The notes: generated from the sequence alone by a model not told the origin. Positions 1-63,066 are shown, counted from the first letter of the stretch. The stretch is 64,000 nucleotides of DNA from a virus (IMGVR_UViG_3300042520_000860:14299-78298); one strand, 5' to 3'. Numbers and translations are program-made.

Positions 1-205
1 GCTGGCAACGAAATCAATCTACGTTATGCCCTTTCGTTTTGCAAACTTTTTCTCGTAAATCTTTAAAATCCCTGTGTTTATGCGCCCTGTAGCTCCTTAA
101 AAATTGCAAACTATTTGCAAAACGTGCAAATTTTCCTCATCTTTTTGCCCTCTTTTCCTTTGTGTGTATTTTTTGAATACACTTTGGCAAATCCTCTTCC
201 TCTTC
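1..205 (-). repeat. ~200-bp dispersed intergenic promoter cassette, copy 1 (cut by window edge)
   Basis: Near-identical to 49128-49333 and 55035-55237. Contains minus-strand TTGCAA(39-44)-N17-TAGATT(16-21) and a GTGTATT/AATACAC hairpin. Confidence 0.95.
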
Positions 206-215
206 GCTAGTCAAC

Positions 216-617
216 TCACGCGCTCAACTCGGCGCGGATGCGACGCACGTCAGCAATCTTCGCTGAGACTGCTTTGGAGATCAAGCGATCATCCTTAGAT
301 GGGCTGCGCTCAATCGCTTGGCGAATCTTTTCGTCCAAGTCACTTGTTGGAGCGGCCTTCGCTTTCGGCGCAGGCTTTTCAGTATCGCCACCAACGCGGT
401 AGCAAACCACGCGCACGGTCATGCGCCGCGCGCTATCCCAGACAGGAAAATCTTTGCGCTCAAAGTCGCCCGACTGCAATCCGGGTTTAAGCAGGTCGGC
501 AACTCGATCAGGATCACACTGCAACTCCACTGCGACTTGCTCGCGTGTCTGCCATCCGGCAGGAATTTGAAAACGATTGGAGTTGATTCGGTTGATTGTT
601 TTTAACCACTTGGACAT
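216..617 (-). CDS. hypothetical protein, possibly HTH-like
   Basis: 133-aa ORF closely following the phosphoesterase gene. Confidence 0.7.
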   Translation of the reverse strand: MSKWLKTINRINSNRFQIPAGWQTREQVAVELQCDPDRVADLLKPGLQSGDFERKDFPVWDSARRMTVRVVCYRVGGDTEKPAPKAKAAPTSDLDEKIRQAIERSPSKDDRLISKAVSAKIADVRRIRAELSA

Positions 618-622
618 AATGT

Positions 623-1627
623 TTATTCTAAAAAGATGGGGAAGGTGCCTGTCCGTCCGTAGCTAGGGTCGAACAGGAAATATGTCTGGGTAGGAGATTC
701 GTAAGGAGCCTTGATCGCAACGCTGTACGCGTTATGACCAATCAGCGAGCCGTTGCAGATCCACTTCGGATTCTGCTGCGACTGGTGCCAGTGGCCGAAG
801 ATGTCGAGGTCGGCGGTGATGCCTTTGTTCCAAGCCGAGATTGCTTTCTCGACGGGAATCGTCAGGCCGCCGATGCCGCCTTGGTACTTTAGGCCATCGC
901 CGTGATGGACGCGGAGCGTTTTGCCATAAAGCTCCATCAAGAGATGGTAGCCGTCGCTCACGTGCCACTCGGCCTTATCGGCAAGCTGCTTGGCCATGAT
1001 ATGATAAAGCATCCACTCGTAGCTATTCGCCGCGCCAGTCGCATGGCGGGGCTTGCGGGTAGTGCGGCCATGGTTGCCATAGACGCAAGGAATGACGATT
1101 TCGGAGAAGTGCTTGCTAAGTAGGTCAAGCCCACCAGCAATTCGATCCTGAAGCCAAAGAACGGTTTCGGTGGGCGACAGCGCGTTCTGCTCCTGAAGCT
1201 CCTCGTGGATGTAGCCAGTCATCAAGTCGCCGCCAAGGATCAGCATCAAGCGGTCAATCTTCGCGCCTTGTCGCTGGATCTCAGTCAACTTGACGATGTT
1301 TGTGAAGAACTTGTTGATTCTTTCCTCCGCGATTTGAAGAGAGAAGGCGTTGAGGCCATTGACGGTTTTCTTATCGACGGTTTCTTCCACGTGCCAATCA
1401 GATGCAACCGCAACGGCGGTCACCTCGTTCTTTTTGGCTGGCGGCAACACGATCTTCGACGCCTTGGGATGATGTGCGGTCAGCGCAAGTGCAGCATCGA
1501 GCTGCGAGTCCTTGTCGTCCAAAATCGCAATCAACCGCTTGCGCTCGTTCTCAAGCTCATCAACGGTCTTGCGGTGACGCTTTTCTGTCACTTCATGAAT
1601 TGCAGTACTCCAGTCTTTGTCGCTCAT
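623..1627 (-). CDS. calcineurin-like metallophosphoesterase
   Basis: SDWH, GGDL, GNHG, HHGD and GHWH motifs in canonical order. Confidence 0.9.
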   Translation of the reverse strand: MSDKDWSTAIHEVTEKRHRKTVDELENERKRLIAILDDKDSQLDAALALTAHHPKASKIVLPPAKKNEVTAVAVASDWHVEETVDKKTVNGLNAFSLQIAEERINKFFTNIVKLTEIQRQGAKIDRLMLILGGDLMTGYIHEELQEQNALSPTETVLWLQDRIAGGLDLLSKHFSEIVIPCVYGNHGRTTRKPRHATGAANSYEWMLYHIMAKQLADKAEWHVSDGYHLLMELYGKTLRVHHGDGLKYQGGIGGLTIPVEKAISAWNKGITADLDIFGHWHQSQQNPKWICNGSLIGHNAYSVAIKAPYESPTQTYFLFDPSYGRTGTFPIFLE

Positions 1628-1638
1628 TTTTTTAGTGG

Positions 1639-7909: not shown

Positions 7910-10327
7910 TTATGATGCTGAGTAAGGCGTAATTTTTGCGAAGCCGTAAACGTCTGCCGTAGTATCGCCTTCGATCTTCACGTTGAGGCCATTGATAGCC
8001 ACAAGCCCGCGAGGGTCAGTTTCATTGTTGCCAGTATCGAATCTCGCCAGCCTACCGCGAACGATGAAGTTCGGACTAGTAAGCACCGTGGTGGTTGTCT
8101 CGTAGCCGCCATAGAGTTTCTTTTCGACAATGAAGCTGTCTTGAAGGTTCGCGATTGTTCGGGCAATCTTGATTCCGAATGTGTGCGTACTGGCGACTTC
8201 AGTGAGAAGGAAAGAGTAATCAAGCGACGGCGCGAGGAAGGTAACGTCATCAAGGTTGCTCGGATTGCTCGGACTCTTTGTTGGAATGCCGATGTCGATG
8301 ACAATACCCCAGTGAACTGGCGTGCTGGATTTGAAGACTGCGGCAACTATTCCAAGATCCAAAATGAACTGGTTGCCAGTGCGGAGCTGACGGTCATTGA
8401 CTGGTACGCGGAATAGCTCACGGGTAAAGTCAGACGGGTAATAGACGCTCTCGCCGCTATTGACTCGCTCGACTTGGTAGAAGCCACGGCCATCCCATGC
8501 GTAGAAGGCGGGGGCTTTGACTTTCTTCAGCTTGCGCCCAAGATAACCGGGGATACTGAGTTCTTTGGAAGTGTCGGTGTATTGGTAGACCGCCGACAAT
8601 GAAGGCGCGGTCGGAAGCGTGTTTGCAACCGTGACCGCTCCTTGCAGATACTTCGCGGGTAACAAGCCACCGCCGCGAGGAAGCGAGCTTGGAATGATTG
8701 ACGCGACGCCTTGTTCTCCACCTCCGCCAGCTTCAAGCACGGGCTGAGTGCGTAGCGGGAAAATCTCGAAGAAAGAAGGAAGAGTCCACGCGGCGACGCC
8801 TTGTACCTTACTGGACGAGCTGACATTGGCGTTTGGAATGTAAGTTTCCAATGCCTCGACGCGCTCGCCCAAGTCCTCTAACAAAAAGCCCAAGCCATTG
8901 ATCTGCGCAATCGTATGGGTGTGGTTGACGAATGCCGATTTTGGCCCTGCCGTGGTAATAACCACGCGAAATTGATTGTCAGTTGCAAGGTTTGCAAACT
9001 TAACGGAAAGCACGTCGTCACTTTCATGAAAAACATCTTCAGGGTAAATGAGCTTACCTCCGTCTAACTGATCGAAGACCGACACGTGCAGGTCGGTCGT
9101 TCCAAGATTGTGTGAAACTTTGTAGCATCCTTCTTGAGCGTCGTAATCGCTTGAACTAAGCGTCAATGAGTAATGCTGTGATCCGAAAATCACTTGATCG
9201 CGGGTGAACGGAACGTAAGTCTCACCAATCGGCGGGCGAAGCCAGTCAACGTTTGAGGCAGCTTCGAGCCCCTCCCAGTTCAGTTCACGCTCGATGGTAA
9301 TCGGCATCTTGCAAAGCGACATCGTTGTGAGCGTTTCATCCGCTTCCTCAAAGGTGGCTTCGATCTCTAAAAAGGATTTTACATCAGGCGCGGAGCGAAG
9401 AGCCTCGGCAACCTCAATAGTATTAGTGTCAAGCGTCAGGGTAGGATCGCCGACGTCGTTGGAAGTCACAGTAACCTCTATCAACTCTTGCGAAACCCCT
9501 TCCATCGAGCCTTTGAATGTAATGTGGGCAAAGTTGTTTCGCGGGTTTGTCACCTCAAAGTTACCGCCTTCATCAGCAAGTTTTACGATAGCGGCTTTGA
9601 TTTCGTCTGGCCCGTCCTCGATTGAAAGCTCATCGGTTCGTTTGTAGCCACGCTTTAGCACGTAAGTGCCACGGAAGGATGGAAGAACCTTTAGGCTTTG
9701 AATTTCTGGCCACTTGGTGAATGCGTCTTCGCCACCCTCTTGAACTCGCTTCACTTCCGGCATATCTGGAAGAATCGGCACGAAATCCACCGTTGACGCC
9801 AACGGAGACTGAATGAGGCGAATGTCATAGTGGTAGGCATCGTTAAACCTCATTTCCCTTACCCGAACGAAGGATAGTGGTTTCAAAGATTCGACAAGTC
9901 CAGAGACTGAAGTTCCAGCCAATCCTGTGATTCGCTGTCCTTCATTAGAGATGATCCACGAACCATCAGTATTGACAACCGTCACGCCGCCAAGCCCGAT
10001 TTCTGCTAGTGCGCTTTGAACGGCCCGCGAAGTTGCATTGAAAGCGATTGCGGGCGTTTGATTCTCTCCTTCCACATACGGGCCGTTGCCTTTCCGTAGC
10101 ACGAAATGGCCTGATTCGGGTCTTGAATCGTATGCACCGATTGATGCCCTAATAGATACAAGGTTCTTGGTAACTTCAGATGACGATCCGTTGACAGACG
10201 AAAGAAAGCGAAGCCCGATTCTCAGCTTATCGCCTTGTGTAATAGCCGGAAAGGTAAAGCCAGAACCGCCAGACGCTGTTTCGGTAAGCGTTTTTTTGTT
10301 TAAGTCAGCGTAGAGAACCAGTTGCAT
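7910..10327 (-). CDS. tail/baseplate-associated protein
   Basis: 805 aa; HNLGT and HTHTIAQINGL fibre-type motifs; downstream of tape measure. Confidence 0.65.
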   Translation of the reverse strand: MQLVLYADLNKKTLTETASGGSGFTFPAITQGDKLRIGLRFLSSVNGSSSEVTKNLVSIRASIGAYDSRPESGHFVLRKGNGPYVEGENQTPAIAFNATSRAVQSALAEIGLGGVTVVNTDGSWIISNEGQRITGLAGTSVSGLVESLKPLSFVRVREMRFNDAYHYDIRLIQSPLASTVDFVPILPDMPEVKRVQEGGEDAFTKWPEIQSLKVLPSFRGTYVLKRGYKRTDELSIEDGPDEIKAAIVKLADEGGNFEVTNPRNNFAHITFKGSMEGVSQELIEVTVTSNDVGDPTLTLDTNTIEVAEALRSAPDVKSFLEIEATFEEADETLTTMSLCKMPITIERELNWEGLEAASNVDWLRPPIGETYVPFTRDQVIFGSQHYSLTLSSSDYDAQEGCYKVSHNLGTTDLHVSVFDQLDGGKLIYPEDVFHESDDVLSVKFANLATDNQFRVVITTAGPKSAFVNHTHTIAQINGLGFLLEDLGERVEALETYIPNANVSSSSKVQGVAAWTLPSFFEIFPLRTQPVLEAGGGGEQGVASIIPSSLPRGGGLLPAKYLQGAVTVANTLPTAPSLSAVYQYTDTSKELSIPGYLGRKLKKVKAPAFYAWDGRGFYQVERVNSGESVYYPSDFTRELFRVPVNDRQLRTGNQFILDLGIVAAVFKSSTPVHWGIVIDIGIPTKSPSNPSNLDDVTFLAPSLDYSFLLTEVASTHTFGIKIARTIANLQDSFIVEKKLYGGYETTTTVLTSPNFIVRGRLARFDTGNNETDPRGLVAINGLNVKIEGDTTADVYGFAKITPYSAS

Positions 10328-10331
10328 TTGT

Positions 10332-10550
10332 TTAGGAGGATATTCTTTCGGAGCTAACGTTAAGCAGTTGTTGTGGAATCAAAGGGATAATTCTGTAAGG
10401 AAAAGACGGATTGATGATTAGCTCAAAGCGTGGTGAGTATTGCTCAATCTGCTTCTGGTTGTCAAGCCGCGCTCGCTTATTCAAGCCAAGGCCGTCTTTT
10501 TTACCAATATCTAGGGCGTTAGCGCCGAATGAAATAGTGCTATCACTCAT
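10332..10550 (-). CDS. hypothetical protein
   Basis: 72 aa; ATGA overlap with upstream gene. Confidence 0.55.
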   Translation of the reverse strand: MSDSTISFGANALDIGKKDGLGLNKRARLDNQKQIEQYSPRFELIINPSFPYRIIPLIPQQLLNVSSERISS

Positions 10551-11782
10551 GTCGTCCAGAAAATTCCTTTTTGACGCTTGGATCGCAACGCCGCCATGTA
10601 TCGTGAGACCATGTCATTTATCGGCGCTAGTAGTGCGTTAAAGAATCCGCCTAGAATTGCGAATCCGGGGCTGGGGGGCAAGAAAATCCTAAGAGGGTCG
10701 GGGTTCATAATTGGCGGAATCTCGGCGGGCATGTAGCATAGGTTCCAAAAAACCTCATTCTTGACTTCTACCTGCCAATGCTTCCCTATTGGGTCTTTTG
10801 GATCGGTACCAAACGGTGAAATGAAGTACACCGTCGCCAGTTTTAAGTAGTCAAACTCTTGGTCTCCGGCACTGTCGCTAAGCCCTGCTAGCGTTAGCGC
10901 CTCATAGTCCAGTTCGATGGGTGGCTTAAAAGGGCCAGAATCAACAAAAACCATTGCGTATCTTCGCGTTTTTGAAAGCCGCGCATATCGCGGGGTGACC
11001 AGCTCGTTGTAGCCATCCAAGAATGGGTTTCCTTTTGTGACGTCATACTTTAGCGAGGCCCGTTCAACTCTCAAAACAACGTCCACCGCTTTTAAGATTC
11101 TGATTTGTTTTAGGTCTGGATCTTTTATCTCTTCCGTAAACTTTATGCCAGCCCCAGTGATCTTACGCTTTTCATTTGACTCTTCCACGCCCATCATTTT
11201 GAACGCTTCGGGTACTGGTTCATAAGCAAAGTCTATCTGCCCTTGTTTTAATGTAAGTTGCGACTGTGATCCAAACCCTATGGTTCTTGCGCCTAAAGGA
11301 GAGATTTCGTAAAAAGGGAACTCGCTAAGAGGAACGTCAATTATCTCTTTATCTTCGGGAGCTTTCGCTTCCTCGCCTGTTTCCTCCGAGGCTTTTTCCC
11401 TTTCCTTTTTTACTCTGTCTCGGCTAACCTGCGAGGCATTTTTCGCCTTAACCATAACTCTAGGCGGAGTACCGTTTACAAAACCGGGCGTGATTTGAAG
11501 ATGCCATGCGTAGTTTTTTTCGTCATCGTCCTTGTTACTTGATCCAACATAGGAATCCAGTTCGAGTTTATTGTTTACCTCTGTATCATTACGCATCCAT
11601 GCGGCGGTGACGCTAAAAGGATGAAGAAACACAGGGGGCTTTTCGTTAATCGTGAGCCTTGACTCTTCGATCTTACCTTGTAGCACGTCAAGCGCCTTAC
11701 GGCTGACAGCAGGAAGCTTTACAATACGTGGCCTTGTAACAACAGTAGACGCGCTGACTGCGTGTGGTTGGGCTTTTTTCAT
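10547..11782 (-). CDS. hypothetical minor tail protein
   Basis: 411 aa; shares HPFxV..xxGxVNG motif with 11782-12498. Confidence 0.6.
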   Translation of the reverse strand: MKKAQPHAVSASTVVTRPRIVKLPAVSRKALDVLQGKIEESRLTINEKPPVFLHPFSVTAAWMRNDTEVNNKLELDSYVGSSNKDDDEKNYAWHLQITPGFVNGTPPRVMVKAKNASQVSRDRVKKEREKASEETGEEAKAPEDKEIIDVPLSEFPFYEISPLGARTIGFGSQSQLTLKQGQIDFAYEPVPEAFKMMGVEESNEKRKITGAGIKFTEEIKDPDLKQIRILKAVDVVLRVERASLKYDVTKGNPFLDGYNELVTPRYARLSKTRRYAMVFVDSGPFKPPIELDYEALTLAGLSDSAGDQEFDYLKLATVYFISPFGTDPKDPIGKHWQVEVKNEVFWNLCYMPAEIPPIMNPDPLRIFLPPSPGFAILGGFFNALLAPINDMVSRYMAALRSKRQKGIFWTT

Positions 11783-13320: not shown

Positions 13321-16300
13321 TATGCTACTGTTGCTACGTATTTAATACTTTCTTTGATTTTTGCAAGTTCGACAAGTGTCTTCAGGTAACCGTTCTGCTC
13401 CTTAGCCGCTTCAAGCAAGCCACTATTGGATGATCTGCCGAAAAGCTGGTTCATAGCGGTTGCGCCGCTGCCTAGTTGACGAGGCTTACCAGCGAGCGGG
13501 TTCATCTCTTCGTTCTTCTCGTTTAGGGAAATCCCTAGATTTGCTGATACTTTTCTTTTAGCAAGCTCACGTGCCTGCGCTTGTCCTTCTTTGCCTGTTA
13601 GCTTCATTGCCGCCGCAATGGCCGCTTGCTCTTTGGCTATCTCATTCTGTATCCCTTTTCCGTCACCTTCGGTAAACGCCAACGAAGGGTTGGCGTTAAG
13701 CCTACTAGCTACTGAAGCCACGTCATTCTGGCCATTAAGGCTAGGCGCAGCGTCGAGCCCTGCCGCTGCTTGGAGCCCTGCCGCGCTTTGTAAACTACCG
13801 CCAGCTTTATTGAGGTTTTGAGCGGCGCGGGTAAGCGCATCCTCCCATGGGAATTTACCGCTTTTCTCCTTTGCTTCAAGAATTTCAATTTCTCGCATTT
13901 GCGAGTCTTTAGACTCTTTTTCTTTTAGCGCGTCGTCATACTTTTTATTTGCGGCACCGACTTTATCCAGCAAAGAGATAAGATCATTGAATGGCTTTTG
14001 AGTGAGTATGTCACTGAGGCCTCGTTTTTTTAGCTCCTCTGCAACTTTTGCGTAATACGCCGCAATGTCTTCAGCATTTTTAAGCTCAACGCTTGGATCA
14101 ATAAGCGGCTTTATGCCGTTTTGGGATAGGATTTCGTCAATCTTTTTACGCGTTTCATTGGCATCCTTAATAGCCGAGTCATCATCTGCGGAGGCTATGC
14201 TCATACGCTGACCCTCTGGTAGAAGGATGTTTACGCGAATGTCTCGTTGCTCAAGTGCTTGACGAATTTTATTTCCAGCCTCTATGCTTGCTTTAACTGC
14301 TTCATCAAGTTGCTTCAAAAAAGGCTCTACCGTGGCCTGAAGTTTTACATTTCCAGATTTTTTAGCCTCTTCAAGCACCTTGTGATAGTACTTTGCAACA
14401 GACTCTACGTCGGTTAATGCCTCATCCTTATCAAAAGTTAATTGTAGCTTAGAAGGTGTTAGACGGTCAACTGCGCTTTTTGCCTCTGCTAACTTAGGAT
14501 CAGAGTTGACGACATCCATGAAGGATTTTCCGTCGGTAGAAGGGGAGTTTGGCTTTACGCGTTTGTCCTTAGCCAAATCTTTGGTTAAATCGGAGCCTAA
14601 CTCCGACTGAGGGGACACCGCAAACTTTGCAGCCGCATCAAGTTCTTTTCTTATTCCAGCTACTTTATCACGAGCCTCGGAAAACTTTTTGCCCTGTGCG
14701 TCTAATGCGTCAGCGTCACTTAACCCACCTATCGCAACGTCGAGCCTTTGGCCATAAGCTGCGTTAAACTCTTTGGCAGCCTCTGCCTGTAGTTTAAGGT
14801 TTTGTGCAATCTGGGCTGACATCTTGACGCGCATCTCCTCTATCGCCAGTGCGTTTGCATTATGGTCTTTAATCTCTTGCTCGGTTCTTAGCTGAGCCTG
14901 CCTTTTGGCATTTAGCTCGACTGACTTATCAAGCAGTCTATTTAAGTAAGCCTCCGTAGCTTTCAGGTTTTCTAACTGGGCTTCATTCGGCTTCTGCTTA
15001 CCAATGAGGGCTAGCTTTTCAAATAAAGTGCTTCCTGCATTTACGTCTTTTTGGGCTTGATACCTTAATTTTTCAATAGCGAGAATGTCTGCTTGCAGTT
15101 GTTTCTGTGCTTTTGCCAAAGCCACGCCGTCTTTTGCCTCGGCGATGTTCCTTGTCGCGTTTGAGGTCATCTGGTTGCCAGTCTCATTTACAGTGTCGGC
15201 CCCTTCAAATTTTTCAGAGGCTAACTTATCAAACTGCGTAATCGCATAAGCCGCTGCGGCAGCTATCGGGGTACGTGTTGCTAATCTAATCTGTACAGGG
15301 ACGCTGGCTAACTCTTTTGCCATGACTATCCTCGCACCACTTGCCCAGTAGCCAGCATTCTTTAACAAAGCTGGCCCGCCAAACGAGGTAAACGCTTTTC
15401 CGAGTCCAGCTGCAATTCCTTTGCCTATGGCATTCGCTACCACCATGGCTCCAATAACATACGCAGTGGTTTCTAATCCACTAGCATCCTCAGGGGCTAT
15501 CTCCATCCCTATCGCTGCGCCAGCTACTGTTCCAACGTTACCCCCTATTGCTTTTAGTCTAGCGGAGGCATTGGTGGTTAGCGCAGTAGTGTTTGCTTGA
15601 ACCATTTTTGTCTCAAATGCCCATCTTGCTGCGCTTGCGACAAGATGCCCAATAAGTGATGCAGCCTGAACTGCTTTGTAGGCAATGACTACTTGCGCAA
15701 GCACAAGAGCGATATTCCCTACCTCTCGTATGTTCTCAACAATAGCGTCGCGATTGTCATTTAGGTATTTAGTGAAGTCTTCAATGTCTCCCCTAAACTT
15801 TTCATAGAAGTCTGAGGCAAGTGCAATGCGCAACGCATCGAAAGCCGCACCAAGCTCATCCAAGTCGCCAGTAAGGTTATCCATTCGCGTTTCGGCCATC
15901 TTCTTTGCAGCGATGTTAGCGTCATTCATGGCCTGCTTCATACCATCAAACGAAGCAGCGTTTCGACCTAGTATGCTTGAAATGTCGATGTTCTCGACGC
16001 CAAATAATTTTGAAAGGGTAGGGATGTCTAGGGTAGCCAACTTATTCAGTGAGTTTTCAACTCCTACAATCTGTGGGTTGATCTCTGATGCAGATACTCC
16101 AACGGCACGCAATGCTTCCACAGCGTCTTTTGTTGGACCTGCTAGCTTGACCATCACGGAAGTTAGGCCGCGTCCAGCCATGCCGCCACGAATGCCATTA
16201 TTTGCAAGGATTGCAAGTAGTGCGCTAGTCTCATCCAAGGGAATGTTCATGGCTTTGGCAACGGGGGCCACGTACTTGAGTGCCTCACCCATATCATCAA

Positions 16301-19415: not shown

Positions 19416-19970
19416 TTACGCAAACGGACAGGCGCGTTGGCCACGGCGCTGAAGGTGCGTATCAATCCGAATGTCAATTACAGACGAAATCGTAAGCTCT
19501 TGGATCTCTATGTCCTTCATCGTCGCCTTGATCGGGCGTAGCAAGGTTCCGTCCAGCCGCGAGTCAACTCGCTCGTCCTCGGCGGTCTCAAGCGCGTCCA
19601 TAACCAGCGCAGACCATTCCATGTGGCCTTTGCGCTCTGTTGGTACATCGGGGTTTCGACGCAGGAACCCATGTTTGCTGTCGGTGCTCAGTTCGAGCTT
19701 CAGCTGGAACGAACTAACGAAGGGCGTATTGGCCTCCTTGTCGGCGGCGTTGTAGACGGGGAAGTTGCCGCCCGCGAAATAGTCCATGTCCTGCTCAATC
19801 GAATAAGGCTGAAGCAAGGGCAGTTTATCAGTTTGCAAGTTTTGCAAACCTCCCTCGCGGCTCCACTTCAAGCCTTGCAGCATCCCGCCAGTCTGGCAGT
19901 GAAATTCGATTCGCTTGAAGAGAGTCCAAACGGCGGCGGTAAACTGATAGCAGTCTGACAAGTTGCTCAT
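19416..19970 (-). CDS. putative tail terminator/completion protein
   Basis: Synteny only. Confidence 0.5.
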   Translation of the reverse strand: MSNLSDCYQFTAAVWTLFKRIEFHCQTGGMLQGLKWSREGGLQNLQTDKLPLLQPYSIEQDMDYFAGGNFPVYNAADKEANTPFVSSFQLKLELSTDSKHGFLRRNPDVPTERKGHMEWSALVMDALETAEDERVDSRLDGTLLRPIKATMKDIEIQELTISSVIDIRIDTHLQRRGQRACPFA

Positions 19971-40188: not shown

Positions 40189-40211
40189 GTGATTAAGTAT
40201 TTTGTCGGAGG

Positions 40212-41024: not shown

Positions 41025-41036
41025 GATTATCGGCGA

Positions 41037-42112: not shown

Positions 42113-42329
42113 AGCGGGTGAGTCACCAGACAATCTTAATCCTCAAATGCTGTCAAGCTATTGGTGTGCAACTTGTGCGAAATAGTTTGTGACAAATCGC
42201 ACAGCTTTTCTGTCACAAAAGAAATTGCAACGTTTGCAATTTTGAAAAGTTGTTACTGGCAAGGACTCCTACGAGTAACAAACCTTTCGCCAACTCATTT
42301 GACTGGACGCGGTTATCCTATGGCTTATC

Positions 42330-42638: not shown

Positions 42639-42661
42639 TTTGCAAGGTTTGCAAACTAATT

Positions 42662-44787: not shown

Positions 44788-45092
44788 TGCTGGTTTCTTT
44801 CTACTGCAATCGCGAGGGCTTCAAGAGTGTCTGGGTCGATCTCGCCGCCTAGGTTGTAATCAGTCAGTGCGCTATCGACTAGCTTGGTAAGCTCATCCTT
44901 TGTCGCATTTGCAAACATTGCAAATTGGAGTGCGTCGTCTCTGTCGCGTTCCATGCGTCGGATGACTCCTAGGGCGCAAGTCACTTGCTCTTCAAGCAAA
45001 CCGATCTGTTCCTTCGCCCAAACCAACTCAGCCCGAAGGTTTGGTGAGTCCTCTGGCGGACTCCACCCTGTTCCGTACTCGTCGCTTATCAT
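44784..45092 (-). CDS. hypothetical protein
   Basis: ATGA overlaps at both ends. Confidence 0.6.
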   Translation of the reverse strand: MISDEYGTGWSPPEDSPNLRAELVWAKEQIGLLEEQVTCALGVIRRMERDRDDALQFAMFANATKDELTKLVDSALTDYNLGGEIDPDTLEALAIAVERNQQ

Positions 45093-46111: not shown

Positions 46112-46993
46112 TTAGAGGTCTTCTGGGTGGCGAAAGCCAAGAAACGACGGGATGCGCGGCTTGTCCTTCATACCGATTGACTGATAGCGAAACTTGACGA
46201 GCTTTCCAAGATAGTTTTTGCGGTTGTCCCATATCTCTTTCCTCAGCGCGGCATCAAAGCCAGTGCCTAGGTTGAAGTCGCCGAAGCGTTCATGGCGAAG
46301 TACTAACGCGCCAAGGGTTCCAAGCGGCGTGAGGTTTTCTTTGTGCGACGAGCGGCGCGTATGACCAAGCTCATTGGTGGTGGCCTCGTTATCATTGCGA
46401 TGCTGTTCCTCGAAGTCGATGATCTCGGCCTCGTCGTCCTCGAAAGGTTTGAGTTTAATGAGGTGGCCTTCCTTGAAGGTTGACCTACCGAACTTGTAGA
46501 CTCCTCGCGGGGCGCGGATCATTGCGCCCTCGTATCCACGCGTCAAGCATGAGTCCAGATAGTCGTCCAGCTCGATGCGGTCGCGAATGAACTTGGTTTC
46601 AACCGCCTTCAGGAACGGGTGCTTTTTTGCAAGGTTTGCAATCCTGAAAATGTACTGATTGACCCGTTGCTCATACGGTAGCGCGGGACTGGTGAAGGTA
46701 TCAAAGACATGGAAGGCGAAGTCGGGCTTGCCGCCGCGCGTCATAATCCCAGATGTGACATCTTGGAATGATGCGCCATCGCCCACCATCAACTCGCCAT
46801 CAAAGCCATCGAACTCAGGCCGTGTCAGCGTCGCGCTGATGTGGCTGTTTGGAATGGGTTTGAGCGAGCGCGTCTTTGGCATGCCGTTAATCACAAGGCA
46901 ACGGATTCCGTCCAGCTTCGGTGAGGCAATCAGCGGAAAGCGCAGCGTGTGCGCCTCAGCATCAAAGGATGCCGCGAGCATGGGCTTAATCAT
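46112..46993 (-). CDS. minimal ATP-dependent DNA ligase
   Basis: KPMLA, KLDGIR, DGEL, VFD, EGAMIR, KLK, PRIPSF motifs. Confidence 0.93.
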   Translation of the reverse strand: MIKPMLAASFDAEAHTLRFPLIASPKLDGIRCLVINGMPKTRSLKPIPNSHISATLTRPEFDGFDGELMVGDGASFQDVTSGIMTRGGKPDFAFHVFDTFTSPALPYEQRVNQYIFRIANLAKKHPFLKAVETKFIRDRIELDDYLDSCLTRGYEGAMIRAPRGVYKFGRSTFKEGHLIKLKPFEDDEAEIIDFEEQHRNDNEATTNELGHTRRSSHKENLTPLGTLGALVLRHERFGDFNLGTGFDAALRKEIWDNRKNYLGKLVKFRYQSIGMKDKPRIPSFLGFRHPEDL

Positions 46994-48731: not shown

Positions 48732-49091
48732 TTAGATGCGCTTGAAGTGGATCGGGTCGCTGTACTGATCACCGGCTAGGAGGACTTTGAAAGTTTCGCC
48801 TTCGATGATGACGAGTTGTTTGTTGTCGAGAATTACTGAGTCCCTGATTTCTTGGCGCTCTTTTTCAAGCTCTTCGGCTTTTCCTGCGTAGTCAGCGGTA
48901 AGCATGGCTGGCTTTTGATTAGCCCAAGCAGTGTCGTGGCCACGCATTAGGCAATGCTCGTGAGCCTCTTCTGGGTCTGAATTGCATTCGTGGGCATATC
49001 CACGAGCCGTTCGGACTCTAATCTTTTTGGCGTATTGGCTGAAGCCGAAGCCGCGAACGACTTGGTTGTGGTGGAGTTGGATTGGATTCAT
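48732..49091 (-). CDS. hypothetical early protein
   Basis: First gene after promoter cassette copy 2. Confidence 0.65.
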   Translation of the reverse strand: MNPIQLHHNQVVRGFGFSQYAKKIRVRTARGYAHECNSDPEEAHEHCLMRGHDTAWANQKPAMLTADYAGKAEELEKERQEIRDSVILDNKQLVIIEGETFKVLLAGDQYSDPIHFKRI

Positions 49092-49127
49092 GGTCGTATT
49101 TGGTTTGGTTTGGTTTATTGCCTATTT

Positions 49128-49333
49128 GCTGGCAACGAAATCAACCTACCTTATGCCCTTTCGTTTTGCAAACTTTTTCTCGTAAATCTTTAAAATCCTT
49201 GTGTTTATGCGCCCTCTAGCTCCTTAAAAATTGCAAATTAGTTGCAAAACGTGCAAATTTTCCTCATCTTTTTGCCCTCTTTTCCTTTGTGTGTATTTTT
49301 TGAATACACTTTTGGTAAGGGCTCTTCCTCTTC
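49128..49333 (-). repeat. promoter cassette, copy 2
   Basis: Near-identical to copies 1 and 3; similarity to copy 3 extends through the leader to the ATG at 49091. Confidence 0.95.
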
Positions 49334-49357
49334 AATGAGGTAGCCTCACGCAACCCT

Positions 49358-52447: not shown

Positions 52448-52762
52448 TTATGCGGCGAAGTTGGCTTTTTCAAGGATCATCAAAGTGACGGTTTCCCCTT
52501 CATCATCAATGGCTAAAGCCTGACGCCCTTCGTCAAACAAAGGAATCGGATTTCCAGAATTGGTAAACTGGTGCAGCATTTCGTAGCCATCGCAGCCGTC
52601 AGAGATGAGGAGCTGGAATCCATCACGGCCATCTTCACTGATGAATGAATCGAAAGCGACGTACTGGCAAGCCTGCTCATGCGCTTCACATCTAATGGCA
52701 TAGGCTTCTTCGAGACGATTTGCAAGAGTTGCAAAAGTGATTGAGATTTGTTCGGTGGTCAT
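52448..52762 (-). CDS. hypothetical protein
   Basis: 104-aa ORF with AAGACC-ATG leader. Confidence 0.6.
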   Translation of the reverse strand: MTTEQISITFATLANRLEEAYAIRCEAHEQACQYVAFDSFISEDGRDGFQLLISDGCDGYEMLHQFTNSGNPIPLFDEGRQALAIDDEGETVTLMILEKANFAA

Positions 52763-54991: not shown

Positions 54992-55034
54992 GGTCGTTTG
55001 TTTGGTTTGGTTTGGTTTGGTTAATTGCCTATTT

Positions 55035-55237
55035 GCTGGCAACGAAATCAACCTACCTTATGCCCTTTCGTTTTGCAAACTTTTTCTCGTAAATCTTTAA
55101 AATCCTTGTGTTTATGCGCCCTGTAGCTCCTAAATAGTTGCAAACTATTTGCAAAACGTGCAAATTTTCCTCATCTTTTTGCCCTCTTTTCCTTTGTGTG
55201 TATTTTTTGAATACACTTTGGCAAATCCTCTTCCTCT
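55035..55237 (-). repeat. promoter cassette, copy 3
   Basis: Near-identical to copies 1 and 2. Confidence 0.95.
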
Positions 55238-55242
55238 ACACA

Positions 55243-56752: not shown

Positions 56753-57115
56753 CTAATTTGCAGGGTTTGCAATCGCATCAAGCACCCATACAGGAACGAC
56801 CGCCACGGAAGATTCGGGCGTTCCAGTCTGGGAGAGAAATTCAATCACGAGCGCGGGAACTTCGCCAGCGCCAAGTGCGGCTTCTTCGATTTTTGTTACC
56901 ATCTCGCGGGTCACTGAGAAGGATTTGTTGGCCGTGGTCTTGCACTCAATACGCGCAACGGACTTAATCCGAACATCACCTTTCACATCGAGCGCGCCGC
57001 TGGCAGGGGTGGTCTTGCCTCCAAGCCGCGCCGCAATCTCGCGCTCTTGCACGGGACTGCGGTGATGGGCAACGGTGCGAACGCCAAGCAGTCGTTTGGG
57101 TTTACTCAGCGGCAT
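56753..57115 (-). CDS. small PD-(D/E)XK nuclease (Hjc-like)
   Basis: QERE, SGA, KGD, IECK motifs. Confidence 0.7.
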   Translation of the reverse strand: MPLSKPKRLLGVRTVAHHRSPVQEREIAARLGGKTTPASGALDVKGDVRIKSVARIECKTTANKSFSVTREMVTKIEEAALGAGEVPALVIEFLSQTGTPESSVAVVPVWVLDAIANPAN

Positions 57116-59285: not shown

Positions 59286-60712
59286 GATAAGATTGTTACT
59301 TTTGATTTTTGATACTCGCGCATCCGCGCGCGAGCAAAGCCTTCAAATAGCGGCAAGCCTTGGTCGATAATAGTCAGCCATATCGGCATCCGTTTGTTAG
59401 GAAGCGGGCGGCGAATCCGGCCAATAGCTTGAATACCATCGGCACGTGGCGTGGCGTCGATTCCTGCATCCAAGCGAGGAATGTTCACGCCTTCCTTCAT
59501 CATCGAGTAAGTGGCAAGGATGACTGAGTACTTCGGATCATCGCGCACCGCAGTCAGATAGCCTTGACCTGTTTGCTTGCGTTTGCCGCCAGCCATGTAA
59601 CTGCCAACGAACAAACCAATCTCGTCTTTGATGCCGCGCTGGTTAAGTAGCGTTTGCAAGGTTTGCAAATGTTCAATGCGGTCGGATAGCACCAGTACAT
59701 TGCGGCCATCCTTATGCAAGGCTTTGACATGATCGGCAATCAGGCGGTTTCTACCATAGCTCTTGCTGACTACTTTCAGCAGTACTGGCAGTGGCGCAGA
59801 CTTGATTTTGGAGTAAAAGGGATCGCTATGATAAAGCACGCGGCATTCGCAAGGCAAGGCATCACCGTTCAAGCGCACGCTGACAGGGCCAAAGCAGTTG
59901 TGAACCATACCCATGCAGCCATCCTTGCGCGTAGGCGTAGCCGTTGCGGCGATGCGATACCGCGCACGGAACAAAGGCATGGTCTTGGCAAACTCAGGCG
60001 CACCTAAGCGATGCGCCTCATCCCAACACACGGTGCCAAAGTAGTCGTAAAAATCGGAAGTGAACTCTTTCTGGAAAAGATTGTGAATGACAGCGATCAC
60101 TAGCTTGCGGCCTTTCCAGTTGGCCACGCTGCCTTGCAGTAAGCCGATTTCGTCAAGCGTCAGGCCAAGGTGCTTGATCGCCTCTTCTTTCCATTGCTCG
60201 GCTAATGCTTTTGATGGGACTACGACAAGCGCAGTTTTGCCAAGCAAACCAATAGCGTTAAGCATAGCCACGGTCTTACCGCTTCCAGTCGGCGCTTCAA
60301 TCAGCGCGGTGATGTTTTGTTTGACTTGCCGGATGATCGCGTCAAAAAAGTCAGCTTGGCCTTCCGCCGCATTCGGATGGTGCGGATCGGGTAGTTTCGC
60401 GGGCGACCAGTCATTGCCATACACAAACGAAGTAGTCGGAAGTTGCGAAGGGTATTTGTACTTGAGGTAATTCCAACCCCACCAAAACGGCACTGAGACC
60501 GTTCGCGTAGCGTGATCGGTGAAGTACTGAATGATAGGTTCAGGTTTTTCAGCCTCACCGCCAAACGATAACGAGCCAACCTTGGGGGTGACGGTCAACT
60601 CATCGGAGAGGCGGAATTTGTCAGACTCACCAACGACATCGAAACACATTGACACCATCGCTCCGGCTGAAGCGTGGGACTTGATGTCAAAGGTTTCGAT
60701 GCGTTGGTTCAT
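59282..60712 (-). CDS. SF2 DEAH-box helicase
   Basis: APTGSGKT, DEAH, TATP, EGVNIP, QAIGRIRR. Confidence 0.92.
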   Translation of the reverse strand: MNQRIETFDIKSHASAGAMVSMCFDVVGESDKFRLSDELTVTPKVGSLSFGGEAEKPEPIIQYFTDHATRTVSVPFWWGWNYLKYKYPSQLPTTSFVYGNDWSPAKLPDPHHPNAAEGQADFFDAIIRQVKQNITALIEAPTGSGKTVAMLNAIGLLGKTALVVVPSKALAEQWKEEAIKHLGLTLDEIGLLQGSVANWKGRKLVIAVIHNLFQKEFTSDFYDYFGTVCWDEAHRLGAPEFAKTMPLFRARYRIAATATPTRKDGCMGMVHNCFGPVSVRLNGDALPCECRVLYHSDPFYSKIKSAPLPVLLKVVSKSYGRNRLIADHVKALHKDGRNVLVLSDRIEHLQTLQTLLNQRGIKDEIGLFVGSYMAGGKRKQTGQGYLTAVRDDPKYSVILATYSMMKEGVNIPRLDAGIDATPRADGIQAIGRIRRPLPNKRMPIWLTIIDQGLPLFEGFARARMREYQKSKVTILS

Positions 60713-60748: not shown

Positions 60749-61702
60749 TTACCATGGCGCGTTGTCGGCGCGACGACGCTTGCGTGGAGAAGGTTCGGAT
60801 TCTTCCGGCGAGTTGTCCGACCCTGATGCGGCTTCATCTTCAAATGGAATCGAATCGCTAGGCTCATCCTCTTGAGCCGCTCGACGGCGTCGCGGCGGGC
60901 CACTAGGCGCGGCTGGCGCGTGATCGGTTTGACTATCATCGTCATACGCTTTGCGGCTTCCAGCCATTGGACGACCGCCGAATCGTTTTGCAAGGTCATC
61001 GGGATCGGGGCGCGGGAAAAGCTCAGCATAGTCGAAGGGCTCAAGATCACCGTTCGCAGGTTTGATGATTTTTCCATCACGATTCTTGATCGGCGGATGG
61101 CCATACTCTTTCACAAGCTCGGCTTCGGGGATCATGTCAAACAGTTTGCCATTCTCAAGCATCACGGGCTCACCAATCGCAACCGATTGATCGCCACCGC
61201 CACGACGCATGACAAGGTACATGCCGCGCATGGTTCCGCATTCGCGATGCGACGCTTTCTGCAAATCAAGGAAGCGTTCCTTCTGGCCAAGTTTGATTGG
61301 CAGCAGCATCCGTGAGTATGCGTGTTCCTCACCAGTCTTTTTATTAGTCCATGGCTTCAAGACCAATGCGGTCATCATCACGACATGGTAGGCGGGGCCG
61401 TAGCCTTCCGTGCCTGCCTTATCGCAAAGCGGGCATGGCGCGAAATCGGCGCAGCATGATTCATTGAGTGACCACTTGCCGTCTGGGCCTTTAAGGTTGT
61501 GTTCGCGGATCAACGCACCACCAACTCCGGGCTCATCACTTACGAACGCAGAATCCAGCAGAACGATTTCAATCTCTTCGTTACGAGGCACCCAAAAGCG
61601 CAGTGGCATGTAGCCACGGTCTTTTCTCGACTGCTGTTCTTGTTCGGCTTTGTTCAATGCTTCCATTGCGGAAGCTCCTTGCTTTATCCATCCTGTACTC
61701 AT
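60749..61702 (-). CDS. single-stranded DNA-binding protein (gp32-like)
   Basis: RFW, H...C...CPLC zinc motif, acidic tail with IPF. Confidence 0.65.
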   Translation of the reverse strand: MSTGWIKQGASAMEALNKAEQEQQSRKDRGYMPLRFWVPRNEEIEIVLLDSAFVSDEPGVGGALIREHNLKGPDGKWSLNESCCADFAPCPLCDKAGTEGYGPAYHVVMMTALVLKPWTNKKTGEEHAYSRMLLPIKLGQKERFLDLQKASHRECGTMRGMYLVMRRGGGDQSVAIGEPVMLENGKLFDMIPEAELVKEYGHPPIKNRDGKIIKPANGDLEPFDYAELFPRPDPDDLAKRFGGRPMAGSRKAYDDDSQTDHAPAAPSGPPRRRRAAQEDEPSDSIPFEDEAASGSDNSPEESEPSPRKRRRADNAPW

Positions 61703-61998
61703 ATTAGTGTTGTTGTTTGTTTATGTTCGATGCCCACCTGCGGGCGTTTTTTCCAATGACTCTTTGTGAGTCGGGAAATCAGTAGCAGCACGTTGCGACC
61801 AGTGATGATGTCGCATCCGGCGTTAATCAAATCAAGTAGTGCGACTCCGCGCGCGGGCATAAGTAGCGAGGCCATACCTTCAACAGCAATCAATCTTTGC
61901 CCGTCTTCAAGCAAGATAAACCAAACCTTCGTCGGCTGGTTTGACATGCTTGTGACTTGCGCCTCGATCACTGAGGCTTTGCTTGTATCGTGGTTCAT
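61699..61998 (-). CDS. hypothetical protein
   Basis: ATGA overlap with SSB gene. Confidence 0.5.
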   Translation of the reverse strand: MNHDTSKASVIEAQVTSMSNQPTKVWFILLEDGQRLIAVEGMASLLMPARGVALLDLINAGCDIITGRNVLLLISRLTKSHWKKRPQVGIEHKQTTTLI

Positions 61999-62012
61999 TG
62001 TCTGGTGCAGTT

Positions 62013-62041
62013 AATTTAATACATGCTTTTACTTTTTGCAA
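62013..62041 (-). promoter_or_regulatory. promoter candidate
   Basis: TTGCAA-N17-TAAATT in AT-rich gap. Confidence 0.5.
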
Positions 62042-62049
62042 ATTCTTTT

Positions 62050-63066
62050 TTATGATTGTTCATAATCATACGACAGCATGCGCTCGACTTCATCAAAAGT
62101 CAGATCGTCTAACTCGTTGGTGCGCTCAGGATAAAGGCAGATCATCGTCGGCAAGTGTTCTTTGAGCTTATCTACCGCCCCGCCGCCAAGATAAGCGCCT
62201 CGCGTTTTATCCCATGCGCCATACAAGCCTTGCGAGCCAGCCGCGTCATCGTCAAACAAGAGGTAAATCGGTCGGTCGTATCCAATCAACGCATCACGCT
62301 GCGCCGAGGATAATGACGAACCCATGATCGCGACTGGATTGCAAAGTTTGCAAATCCCGATTTCAATCAAATGCGCCAAACCGAATAGCCCTTCAACGGC
62401 TAGGATTGGTTTATCGTCGTCAATCAACTGCTCGCCAAGCAGCCTGTACTCTTTTTTGAGGCCAGCGTAGTTCTTCACTTTCGGAATCCTTTCATCGCGC
62501 AAATCATCCGGCACGATCGAACGCCCCGTGAAGCCGTAAAGCAGTCGCGCGTGATCGAATACGGGAAATAGAATCCGCTTTGCCTCAGGATCATAGCGCA
62601 ACTGCAAGCGCGTGGCAGTCGCTTCACTTACTCCACGCGACGCAAGGTAGATAATCGCATCAGCGAACTCAACCGCGCTTGGATACATCGACAGATAAAC
62701 TAAATCGTTGATCGGTTCCGGCAAGTCGTCCAGCAGGTCTGCGTCGGACGGTTCAAACTCACCGAAGCGTTCTGGCACTTCCATCACCGTTGCTTGCAAG
62801 GCGAGGTGGTTGTAGTCTTTGTCGCGATAGTAGCCAAGCTGATTGACCAATGCGCGTACCCCGCCATGCTGTTTGCACGTGAAGCAATGGAATCCACTGG
62901 GGCCATCAGCATTCGCCCGAACATAAAACGATGGCTTGCGGTCAGTGCCTTTTGCGTGAAGAAACTCAGCAAACGGACAACGCGCCAGCAACCAACCGCT
63001 AGGGTTTTTGTCGGTGACTTCGATGTCGAGCTTCAGCAGTAAGCGGCGTAGATCGTACTCTTTCAT
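62050..63066 (-). CDS. DNA primase (Zn finger + TOPRIM)
   Basis: CPF..H, PSF, CFTC, YLASRG, GR, VEG, FDDDAAG. Confidence 0.88.
   Translation of the reverse strand: MKEYDLRRLLLKLDIEVTDKNPSGWLLARCPFAEFLHAKGTDRKPSFYVRANADGPSGFHCFTCKQHGGVRALVNQLGYYRDKDYNHLALQATVMEVPERFGEFEPSDADLLDDLPEPINDLVYLSMYPSAVEFADAIIYLASRGVSEATATRLQLRYDPEAKRILFPVFDHARLLYGFTGRSIVPDDLRDERIPKVKNYAGLKKEYRLLGEQLIDDDKPILAVEGLFGLAHLIEIGICKLCNPVAIMGSSLSSAQRDALIGYDRPIYLLFDDDAAGSQGLYGAWDKTRGAYLGGGAVDKLKEHLPTMICLYPERTNELDDLTFDEVERMLSYDYEQS

Follow-up and report, generated by a model that had tools for sequence, protein, structure and literature searches.

The KorB operator OB of plasmid RK2 (TTTAGC-S-GCTAAA) is found in some copies at promoters and in others far away. 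KorB and its ParB-family relatives ParB and Noc bind palindromes of 13-16 bp and have a central HTH DNA-binding domain. Dispersed palindromes presumed to bind dimeric proteins also have a published precedent in phages (PMC4351075). In Cluster A mycobacteriophages, which are temperate, the immunity repressor binds asymmetric 13-bp stoperators (PMC4351075), and Microbacterium phages of Cluster EG carry 18-bp inverted repeats, in 8-10 copies, in one genome arm (PMC7302621). The closest known case to the array described here is the dispersed 17-bp repeat of Cluster O mycobacteriophages (Corndog and its relatives), TGTTCGG-NNN-CCGAACA, which has the same 7-N3-7 layout (PMC4351075). In our recount, the 70-kb Corndog genome contains 34 copies.

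The phage analysed here is an uncultivated freshwater phage with an IMG/VR record of 78,298 bp, and the window is the 64,000-nucleotide stretch corresponding to record bases 14299-78298. Its genome contains the palindrome TTTGCAA-N3-TTGCAAA about 30 times, at even intervals. Strong selection at the DNA level retains a site every 2-5 kb throughout the genome, with a preference for gene boundaries.

Site definition, number and placement

A preliminary description of the window had listed 15 exact and nine one-mismatch copies of TTGCAA-N3-TTGCAA. Every exact start coordinate was reproduced, and all nine one-mismatch copies were recovered together with a tenth at 21508. The conserved unit is in fact the 17-mer TTTGCAA-N3-TTGCAAA, overlooked in that description, which consists of two inverted 7-bp arms with 3 bp between them. 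TTGCAA is moreover itself a palindrome, so that the site is both an inverted and a direct repeat, a point that had also been missed.

The 15 exact copies in the window compare with 0.01 expected (100 dinucleotide shuffles, largest 1), and the 25 sites with at most one mismatch with 0.63 expected. The complete record has 17 exact sites and 32 at no more than one mismatch to the 12-base core, and a search with the 17-mer allowing up to two mismatches in the 14 arm bases gives 31 sites in it; TTGCA-N5-TGCAA is present 28 times (0.35 expected). The hexamer TTGCAA alone is also over-represented (73 versus 33.6 expected), which does not account for the site count. Enrichment is confined to the 9-bp register: across the full record, hexamer pairs lie 9 bp apart (start to start) 17 times and 11 bp apart five times, the latter within promoter cassettes that recur in the genome; no other separation up to 60 bp is seen more than once. 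Within genes, 12 exact sites were observed against 0.19 in codon-preserving shuffles (largest 2 of 300). The sites are given below in window coordinates, with a strand for the cassette copies.

2921-2935: exact TTGCAA-GGC-TTGCAA, intergenic (our own gene calls)
8983-8997: exact, within an 805-aa tail-region gene
16202-16216: exact, within the tape-measure gene
19833-19847: exact, in a 184-aa gene; orthologous position in the relative G001 identical
24200-24214: exact, intergenic, with the major capsid gene about 150 nt downstream; in G001 arms kept, centre changed
28654-28668: exact, in the gene for the prohead protease; conserved in G001
32318-32332: exact, near the 5' end of a MuF-like 994-aa gene; arms conserved in G001
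34398-34412: exact, the sole reversed centre (ACC on +); conserved in G001
42225-42239: exact, between genes, upstream of the DNA-modification cassette; G001 keeps the arms
42640-42654: exact, intergenic; arms conserved in G001
44909-44923: exact, in a 102-aa gene; identical in G001
46627-46641: exact, in the gene for an ATP-dependent DNA ligase; G001 keeps the arms
52720-52734: exact, at the 5' edge of a 104-aa ORF, possibly upstream of the true start
59654-59668: exact, in the SNF2/DEAD helicase gene
62339-62353: exact, in the DnaG-like primase gene
2118-2132: one mismatch, at the 5' edge of a CHAP-domain gene
21499-21522: a pair of overlapping one-mismatch sites at a gene junction, made up of three hexamers at 9-bp steps; identical in G001
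26193-26207: variant TTGCAC-AAC-GTGCAA (fits TTGCA-N5-TGCAA), in a 954-aa gene; identical in G001
28063-28077: one mismatch, TTGCAG on +; of the alignable sites, this alone has an altered arm in G001
35126-35140: one mismatch, overlapping the stop codon of the terminase large subunit; identical in G001
37932-37946: one mismatch, within the UDP-galactopyranose mutase gene; G001 is without that cassette
56758-56772: one mismatch, six codons before a stop and just upstream of the next gene
104-129, - strand: promoter/leader cassette copy, TTGCAC-GTT-TTGCAA with a further TTGCAA 11 bp on (coding-strand view); extends past the window start
49231-49256, - strand: second cassette copy, motif cluster as at 104-129
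55138-55163, - strand: third cassette copy, motif cluster as at 104-129
Record base 2707: fourth cassette copy, upstream of the window

All genes in the record lie on the - strand, and the coding-strand consensus is tTTGCAA-ACC-TTGCAAa. On the + strand the spacer is GGN at 11 of 25 sites and ACC at one, which bears out the polarity seen earlier, and the five exact intergenic sites all share it. The sites had been said to fall in all three reading frames; they do, but with a marked skew (15, 6 and 1 sites per frame, record-wide). Ten of the 32 record sites are intergenic and 22 genic, in a record that is about 94% coding. They span all modules, early and late alike, a poor fit to the control of one temporal class.

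Conservation and drift among relatives

Seven genomes, all relatives of one another, were compared. At the 13 sites of this phage that can be aligned with G001 (TerL identity 78%), a comparison conditioned on the sites of this phage only, 155 of 156 arm bases and 33 of 39 centre bases are identical; the surrounding local alignments are 80-97% identical, with a local identity of about 86%. Together with the codon-preserving shuffles, this agrees with the earlier proposal that selection acts on the DNA rather than the protein. Each relative examined has its own array of 13-18 bp palindromes: TTGCAA-ACC-GTGCAA in G012 (18 copies), TTTGCAC-GATC-TTGCAAA in G008 (14), TTTGACC-GTC-GGTCAAA in G009 (22), TTTGAAA-ACT-TTTCAAA in G013 (43) and TTTGAAC-GCT-GTTCAAA in G011. 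Seven more loci of the family, outside the seven genomes, have other variants (for example TGCAAC-T-GTTGCA and TGCACG-AA-CGTGCA). This use of different words by related phages points to a phage-encoded reader rather than to a host-derived repeat such as an uptake sequence, Chi or a HIP1-like word. When 185,579 species genomes were scanned for the 17-mer, the matches listed amounted to one per stretch, and the exceptions among them were two stretches of 9-bp tandem coding repeats.

Gaps between sites are more even than by chance in all seven genomes (CV 0.37-0.61 versus about 0.93; P ≤0.045 each). More than half of the sites of this phage and of G001 are deep within genes; in G008, G009 and G013 the figure is 7-27%, against 70-76% for random positions. 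Both orientations are present in G008 (10:4) and G013 (about 24:13), as expected if a dimer reads the site in duplex DNA. A symmetric dimer does not, however, explain why the centre is so strongly polar (ACC-type 11:1 in this phage, and a central T in nearly all G009 sites).

Several genomes have a subset of sites directly upstream of repeated sigma-70-like promoter cassettes (cassette-adjacent: 7/9 in G013 plus two degenerate copies, 7/16 in G009, 3/20 in G011 and 4/4 in this phage). These copies sit in duplicated cassettes, and their fixed geometry may thus reflect common descent. Promoter-like geometry is confined to the repeated cassettes. When 148 sites were pooled, neither -10 elements nor -35 elements nor start codons lay at a constant distance from them, which indicates that most sites are not classical operators.

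Candidate binders and competing readings

Our tentative explanation is that the sites form a genome-wide recognition array for a putative phage-encoded, sequence-specific, probably dimeric DNA-binding protein linked to transcription. That they are binding sites at the DNA level is probable; the link to transcription, the role favoured here, is somewhat less likely than not. The putative binder would have co-evolved with its own site across the phage family, reading two 7-bp arms in which the outer TTTG/CAAA is constant family-wide and the inner bases are lineage-specific, and leaving the central bases largely free. It may be a global regulator or boundary factor, similar to KorB or a stoperator-binding protein, positioned between genes of a single co-directional array, close by the promoter cassettes and also at the replication origin's side, where it would gate promoter activity and read-through over the infection cycle. 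One palindrome copy lies within 115 bp upstream of putative origin iterons in three of six initiator genes. No HTH regulator was found among the annotated core genes. The preliminary description had suggested a dimeric protein coating the genome; the dyad symmetry and lineage-specific variants fit a dimeric sequence-specific binder, whereas coating is unsupported.

The sites might instead be loading or nucleation points for a machine that moves along or spreads on DNA, such as a ParB-like clamp aiding the post-replicative hypermodification enzymes encoded beside terminase, a condensation or protection factor, or helicase reloading. This is unlikely, although the even spacing in seven genomes would give full genome coverage, sites occur both within and between genes in all modules, 7/7 genomes have a phrog_620 ParB-like gene, always beside variable DNA-modification cassettes, and palindromes of 13-16 bp are what ParB, Noc and KorB bind. 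Some phage thymine dioxygenases also require a ParB partner on double-stranded DNA (PMC13229309), Cluster O phages with their analogous repeats likewise encode a ParB-like protein (PMC4351075), and two unrelated ParB-glycosyltransferase loci have arrays (L245, TGGCAACGTTGCCA in nine copies; L258, TGGAAACGTTTCCA in four). Against this, the seven genomes are kin, so the co-occurrence is not independent evidence. The ParB-like protein itself (39247-40188, 313 aa; predicted structure with pLDDT 79) was modelled with a ParB N-domain fold (Z 7.5 to pNOB8 ParB-N and 5.2 to KorB) plus an acidic linker and, as C-domain, a helical part that gave no structural match above background, and no HTH was recognisable in the model; no obvious DNA-binding domain is reported for this ParB class (PMC13229309). 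In a survey of IMG/VR loci of at least 8 kb with a homologous ParB and a glycosyltransferase (TAGT), arrays of at least three palindrome copies occurred in 2 of 61 unrelated loci, compared with 2 of 67 control loci. The preliminary description had listed this protein among several candidate binders, a listing that the survey does not support. A more specific version, in which the palindromes are parS-like entry points for genome-wide post-replicative hypermodification, with a ParB-like clamp or other tracking factor loading at each site and escorting or activating modification enzymes over the neighbouring few kilobases, is distinctly improbable; if true, each lineage must retain one site per 2-5 kb whatever the chemistry of its cassette. 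The sites do not mark one modification chemistry, because the array is retained in relatives with different modification cassettes. Signals in single strands, either mRNA hairpins for intercistronic processing, stability or translation recognised by a sequence-specific RNA-binding protein or nuclease, or lagging-strand template priming, are improbable. All variants are inverted repeats able to form a 5-7 bp stem, G013, G009 and G008 sites lie between a stop and the next start, often 1-20 nt before an ATG lacking a Shine-Dalgarno sequence, and centre polarity on the coding strand would be expected of a loop that is read. The stems, however, are weak (-1.8 to -6 kcal/mol, and -1.8 for the 43-copy G013 motif), which excludes a stable hairpin and, with 3' bases mostly A on the coding strand, an intrinsic terminator. 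In four of the one-mismatch variants a G:T wobble is preserved on the + strand, but that strand is antisense. What is invariant within a genome is the arm sequence, beyond mere pairing; arms are perfect at reversed-centre sites in G013 and G008, the would-be loop evolves about as fast as the flanks in G001, and some variants have 1-2 central bases, too few for a loop unless the stem opens.

Binding by a lambda-O-like replication initiator, at dispersed secondary origins or for initiator titration, is very unlikely. Lambda O binds dyad-symmetric sites of comparable size, and a 482-aa core protein resembles Phage_rep_O/HTH_36 (Pfam E 0.01; Atlas feature score 0.95). This initiator is the fastest-evolving replication gene of the family (23-31% identity), and in this phage it holds three hexamers 9 bp apart, close to direct repeats of 21 bp and to 80 bp of DNA with 20% GC. 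Such clustering beside 20% GC DNA, however, was found at one place only (record bases ~8190-8350, outside the window), which sets aside lambda-type origin iterons for the array as a whole; the other sites are single, and palindromes never cluster outside that place. Iteron-like direct repeats, recurring every 22-30 bp, are moreover found in each initiator gene; they are particular to that gene and unlike the palindrome in sequence (a 21-bp unit in G008; GTCGCGTGGCGAC in G009), and this phage and G012 share arms despite differing predicted recognition helices. Also very unlikely is use of the sites by a phage-modified RNA polymerase, as promoters or -35-type elements. The half-sites all start with TTG, resembling a -35 hexamer, most sites share one polarity, TTGCAA is the -35 hexamer in 16 leaderless G009 promoter cassettes, and cassettes of this phage may use TTGCAC or TTGCAA in this way. 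Yet TANNNT or near-TATAAT was not enriched at any offset among the 148 pooled sites, leaving no -10-like element at a fixed position and no case for a sigma-70 promoter; about one third of G013 and G008 sites are reversed, and many sites are either deep within a gene or separated from a start codon by just 1-3 nt. The proteins searched included no phage RNA polymerase and no sigma factor.

Comparison with described arrays

The arrays of KorB, ParB and Noc resemble this one in their short perfect palindromes with T-rich and A-rich ends, in about a dozen or more copies per replicon and in a ParB-family gene within the element. They differ in that those proteins have a central HTH, none being recognised here, and in that arrays do not accompany the ParB-like homologues of this phage. 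Cluster A stoperators similarly comprise tens of genic and intergenic sites whose polarity follows the direction of transcription, whereas the sites here are palindromic; a search of about 60 proteins turned up neither an integrase nor a repressor family. The Cluster EG repeats are also short inverted repeats, located upstream of start codons where the space between genes is short, and kept amid diverging flanks, but they are few, restricted to one arm and fixed at 14-22 bp from start codons (PMC7302621).

The stoperator and parS analogies drawn in the preliminary description are reasonable, but among published cases the 17-bp repeat of Cluster O comes nearest (PMC4351075). Cluster O phages and this phage share invariant arms with a variable centre, tens of sites genome-wide, and intergenic, 5'-proximal and mid-gene locations. 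Both are siphoviruses without integrase that encode a ParB-like protein and glycosyltransferases, and Corndog gp96 is homologous to the AAA ATPase of this phage (31% identity, E 1e-52). The site sequences are unrelated, and the host is Mycobacterium there and a freshwater host here. Spacing of the Corndog sites is uneven over the genome as a whole (CV 1.06, and 0.62-0.67 inside each arm), unlike the array here, and its authors saw no meaningful orientation of the centre (PMC4351075), whereas here the centre is ACC-type 11:1 on the coding strand. A further difference is that the present array shows drift of the site across a whole family.

The phage genome and its site array

The IMG/VR record of the phage under study (G000; record L137) is 78,298 bp long, of which the window covers bases 14299-78298; its estimated completeness is 89%, and its predicted gene content is that of a siphovirus-like phage. 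All long ORFs lie on the minus strand, and no integrase or repressor families were found among the approximately 60 proteins searched. Megablast found no near-identical relatives among isolated phages; the nearest isolated relative by capsid is Microcystis phage Mvi-JY20 (27% identity), followed by T5-like phages. A sequencing-run search found G000 DNA in 14 DNA runs, all from lake-water or freshwater metagenomes, and listed no RNA runs.

Main features of G000 (long ORFs all on the minus strand)
Structural genes: tape-measure protein, major head protein, portal, large terminase, prohead protease, MuF-like head protein
Window 29430-32414: the MuF-like head protein, with an internal ADP-ribosyltransferase-like segment at residues ~464-608 (PHROG matches to Alt-like and exoenzyme-type ADP-ribosyltransferases)
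Replication and recombination genes: family-A polymerase, DnaB-like helicase, DnaG-like primase, RecA, two junction resolvases, RecB/Cas4-like exonuclease, ligase, ArdC-like protein, AAA ATPase
L137 2755-5493: the family-A DNA polymerase, with an N-terminal domain of the uracil-DNA-glycosylase superfamily (UDG-like; Pfam UDG, E 6e-6)
L137 7473-8921: O-like initiator gene, containing a candidate origin at ~8190-8350
Window 37195-42044: DNA-modification cassette adjoining the terminase, with UDP-galactopyranose mutase, two TET-associated glycosyltransferases (TAGT) and a ParB-like protein
Window 1-~210, ~49090-49335 and ~55000-55240, and record bases ~2560-2880 (L137) upstream of the window: four promoter/leader cassettes

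Because TTGCAA reads the same on both strands, the site TTGCAA-N3-TTGCAA is an inverted as well as a direct repeat, and the T and A at its flanks extend it to a 17-bp 7-N3-7 palindrome with the coding-strand consensus tTTGCAA-ACC-TTGCAAa; this anatomy was missed in the preliminary description. The 15 exact and nine one-mismatch copies reported there were all recovered in place, and a tenth one-mismatch copy was found at window 21508. Dinucleotide shuffles predicted 0.01 exact copies and 0.63 with at most one mismatch. The TTGCAA hexamer itself is about twofold enriched, and across the whole record hexamer pairs occur 17 times at 9 bp, five times at 11 bp and never more than once at the remaining distances within 60 bp. 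When synonymous codons were permuted with every protein kept, 0.19 exact in-gene sites were obtained (maximum 2 in 300 trials) compared with 12 observed. The shuffles, the register specificity and the codon-preserving shuffles rule out chance, composition and coding as causes, and the array is real and under selection. The polarity described for the spacer also held on the plus strand (GGN 11, ACC 1), as did the occurrence of in-gene sites in all three frames, although their use is uneven (15, 6 and 1). Ten of the 32 sites are intergenic, though about 94% of the record is coding, and those within genes are not limited to long genes.

A variant, TTGCAC-GTT-TTGCAA with a further TTGCAA 11 bp on, is present in each of the four promoter/leader cassettes, which are near-identical, about 260 bp long, and lie at the head of the polymerase operon and of three further gene blocks. 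All four share an inverted repeat (GTGTATT/AATACAC), the cluster TTGCAC-GTT-TTGCAA, an AAGGAG box and a conserved leader of about 140 nt, together with a long CA-rich AACCAAACC tract that closes in ACGACC-ATG without a Shine-Dalgarno sequence.

Conservation, family variants and placement

Conservation was examined against G001, a 28-kb fragment of a relative (TerL identity 78%) with 12 sites, most of them orthologously placed. The comparison was conditioned on G000 sites only, and all 13 alignable sites were transferred by local alignment. The 12 arm bases were identical at 155 of 156 positions and the three central bases at 33 of 39, in surrounding alignments of 80-97% identity. Arm identity well above that of the surroundings indicates strong purifying selection on the arms, while the centre evolves about as fast as the sequence around it. 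Further relatives were located by TerL and capsid alignment, taken whole and scanned de novo for over-represented dyads.

Dispersed palindromes in relatives of G000 (genome, size, site, copies)
G012, 90 kb, TTGCAA-ACC-GTGCAA, 18
G008, 75 kb, TTTGCAC-GATC-TTGCAAA, 14
G009, 88 kb, TTTGACC-GTC-GGTCAAA, 22
G013, 88 kb, TTTGAAA-ACT-TTTCAAA, 43
G011, 71 kb, TTTGAAC-GCT-GTTCAAA, 13 at no more than one mismatch

Across the seven whole genomes the outer TTTG/CAAA is kept and so, without exception, is the dyad symmetry, with drift in the inner bases and in the central spacing; this is the pattern expected of a site that would co-evolve with a phage-encoded reader. Arrays were also found in 13 of 19 family-level loci around the AAA ATPase, seven of the 13 being from genomes outside the seven, and further variants at these loci include TGCAAC-T-GTTGCA, TGCAAC-GG-GTTGCA, TGCACG-AA-CGTGCA and TGAACC-CC-GGTTCA. 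True relatives apart, searching IMG/VR for the exact words of G000 and G008 turned up mostly single matches attributable to chance. Among 185,579 bacterial and archaeal species, each represented by one genome, the matches listed for the G000 17-mer were isolated or lay in unrelated 9-bp tandem coding repeats. Pattern scans can be misled by tandem 9-bp TTTGCAxxx repeats in coding sequences of unrelated viral and bacterial contigs (L011, L072, L377 and L407), which mimic the motif and give false positives.

In each of the seven genomes the sites are spaced more evenly than random placement would give (CV of the gaps 0.37-0.61 versus about 0.93; P from <0.0002 to 0.045). Gene interiors are strongly avoided in G008, G009 and G013, where 7%, 27% and 21% of sites, respectively, are deep-genic compared with 70-76% of random positions, and it is common for a site to fit tightly between a stop codon and the following ATG. 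Avoidance is weak in G000 and G001 (57-58% versus 72%). Relative to the coding strand, G000, G012 and G009 have a polar centre; the ratio is only 2:1 to 2.5:1 in G013 and G008. In G013 a site lies just upstream of seven of nine repeated promoters, 6-8 nt (once 25 nt) before the -35, and the other two have degenerate copies; the corresponding counts for repeated promoter cassettes are 7 of 16 in G009, 3 of 20 in G011, whose 20 promoters are canonical TTGACA-N17-TATAGT, and 4 of 4 in G000. This geometry is not independent evidence because the cassettes are duplicates of one another. The sixteen promoter-like cassettes of G009 (L210-L214; e.g. 66486 and 74496) have a -35 TTGCAA separated by 17 bp from a weak -10 (cAtccT). 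An ATG lies about 6 nt downstream, which implies that the mRNAs are leaderless, and the encoded proteins begin in a similar way (Met-Ser-Asn-type).

Candidate binding proteins

The preliminary description named the ParB-like protein among its candidate binders. All seven genomes have a phrog_620-type ParB-like gene, always beside modification cassettes that vary between genomes; the cassette on the terminase side is swapped between relatives and the ParB-like gene accompanies each.

Modification cassettes beside the ParB-like gene
G000, window 37195-42044: galactopyranose mutase and two TAGT glycosyltransferases
G001, L132 267-4404: PAPS-reductase/DUF3440 protein, cupin and GP88-family protein
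G008, L133 13867-18872: two Tet_JBP dioxygenases, amino-acid:DNA transferase and amidotransferase

On double-stranded DNA, certain phage thymine dioxygenases depend on a ParB of this kind (PMC13229309). The predicted model of the G000 protein (window 39247-40188; pLDDT 79) has a ParB N-domain resembling that of pNOB8 ParB (ParB-N, Z 7.5) and KorB (Z 5.2), and the remainder is modelled as a disordered acidic linker and a helical C-domain without a match above background. A 335-aa cassette protein (window 41037-42044) had no detectable family, and a PDB sequence search with it was empty. The ParB-like gene and the adjacent TAGT glycosyltransferase gene (window 38330-40188) are a tight pair, found together at 79 of 80 IMG/VR ParB-homologue loci (L224-L303). 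Palindrome arrays were present in only two of 61 such loci of at least 8 kb versus two of 67 control loci, so the array is clearly not a general companion of the ParB-like protein. Two phages with unrelated backbones (TerL 22-23% identical) do carry dispersed perfect palindromes beside a ParB-TAGT pair: TGGCAACGTTGCCA nine times in 14 kb in L245 (IMGVR_UViG_3300044695_006908), and TGGAAACGTTTCCA four times in 21 kb in L258 (IMGVR_UViG_3300016265_001020).

A 482-aa core protein encoded upstream of DnaB looks like a lambda-O-type initiator. Its gene contains a run of three TTGCAx hexamers at 9-bp steps; next come a pair of 21-bp direct repeats, 30 bp apart, and an 80-bp stretch at 20% GC. These features make record bases ~8190-8350 a good candidate for a replication origin, located, as in lambda, in the linker-coding part of the initiator gene. 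The Ycf46-like AAA ATPase (L137 10719-12401) and its neighbours at 9268-10581 (a DUF2997 protein and small partners) rank with the family's best-conserved modules (49-59% identity), and the ATPase has homologues in mycobacteriophage Corndog (gp96, 31% identity, E 1e-52) and many large phages. Arrays do not travel with its distant homologues (2 of 57 loci), though Corndog is one case. Other core proteins of obscure role gave no informative match, and PDB sequence searches with three of them were empty.

Readings of the array and known systems

Selection on the arms and even spacing in all seven genomes indicate a genome-wide function, and the array most probably consists of binding sites for a phage protein that co-evolves with them. 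For the role of that protein we tentatively favour a genome-wide regulator of transcription or of boundaries. Ranked next, and rather unlikely, is a loading site for a machine that tracks or spreads along the genome, an idea that includes ParB and modification; the constant company of ParB-like gene and cassette, with the palindromes of L245 and L258, speaks for it, and the scarcity of arrays at ParB loci against it. Signals that act as single-stranded hairpins have the required dyad symmetry and are improbable: folded as RNA, the consensus 17-mers reach -1.8 to -6 kcal/mol, and no T run comes after them, which is too weak for terminators or structure-only signals. Exact arms kept within a genome, only one or two central bases in some variants and the weak folds together favour a protein that reads duplex DNA.

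It is more improbable still that the sites serve the initiator. The palindrome adjoins the origin in three of six genomes and is not its iteron; in the relatives, the linker-coding part of the initiator gene has iteron-like direct repeats of its own, which recur every 22-30 bp and differ from the dispersed palindrome, so the initiator more probably reads those repeats. Special promoters come last and are highly improbable, despite the sites upstream of repeated promoter cassettes. When 148 sites were pooled, neither -10-like nor -35-like hexamers nor start codons lay at a fixed distance from them; as a class the sites are therefore neither promoters of the sigma-70 type nor ribosome-binding signals. 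A likeness to sigma-54 promoters (TGGCAC-N5-TTGCA) failed on sequence inspection, as the GG is absent and the spacing 1-2 bp short, and N4-type hairpin promoters were dropped as no virion RNA polymerase was found.

With such a series of site variants the binder can be tracked down. For more than a decade, short palindromes scattered through the genome have been on record from a few clusters of actinobacteriophages, and this freshwater family, with at least 14 related genomes or loci carrying arrays and about a dozen distinct site variants, is a much better handle on them. An identified binder would explain a recurring element of phage genome architecture and could yield orthogonal protein-operator pairs.

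The closest known system is that of the Cluster O mycobacteriophages, which have more than 30 copies of TGTTCGG-NNN-CCGAACA with invariant arms and variable centres, about one third of them in genes; the published prediction is that a dimeric protein binds them and that their role is not in initiating transcription (PMC4351075). The 7-N3-7 architecture is common to these repeats and the G000 array, and Corndog, a Cluster O phage, has a ParB-like protein and an AAA ATPase homologue, as G000 does. On recount Corndog has 34 sites, which are unevenly spaced over the genome as a whole (CV 1.06) but moderately regular within each arm. In Microbacterium Cluster EG phages the 18-bp inverted repeats are fewer and tied to start codons (PMC7302621). 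The likeness to Cluster O places the G000 array in a described but unexplained class, for which the family-wide variant series, the even spacing in all seven genomes and the polar centre in several had not been reported.
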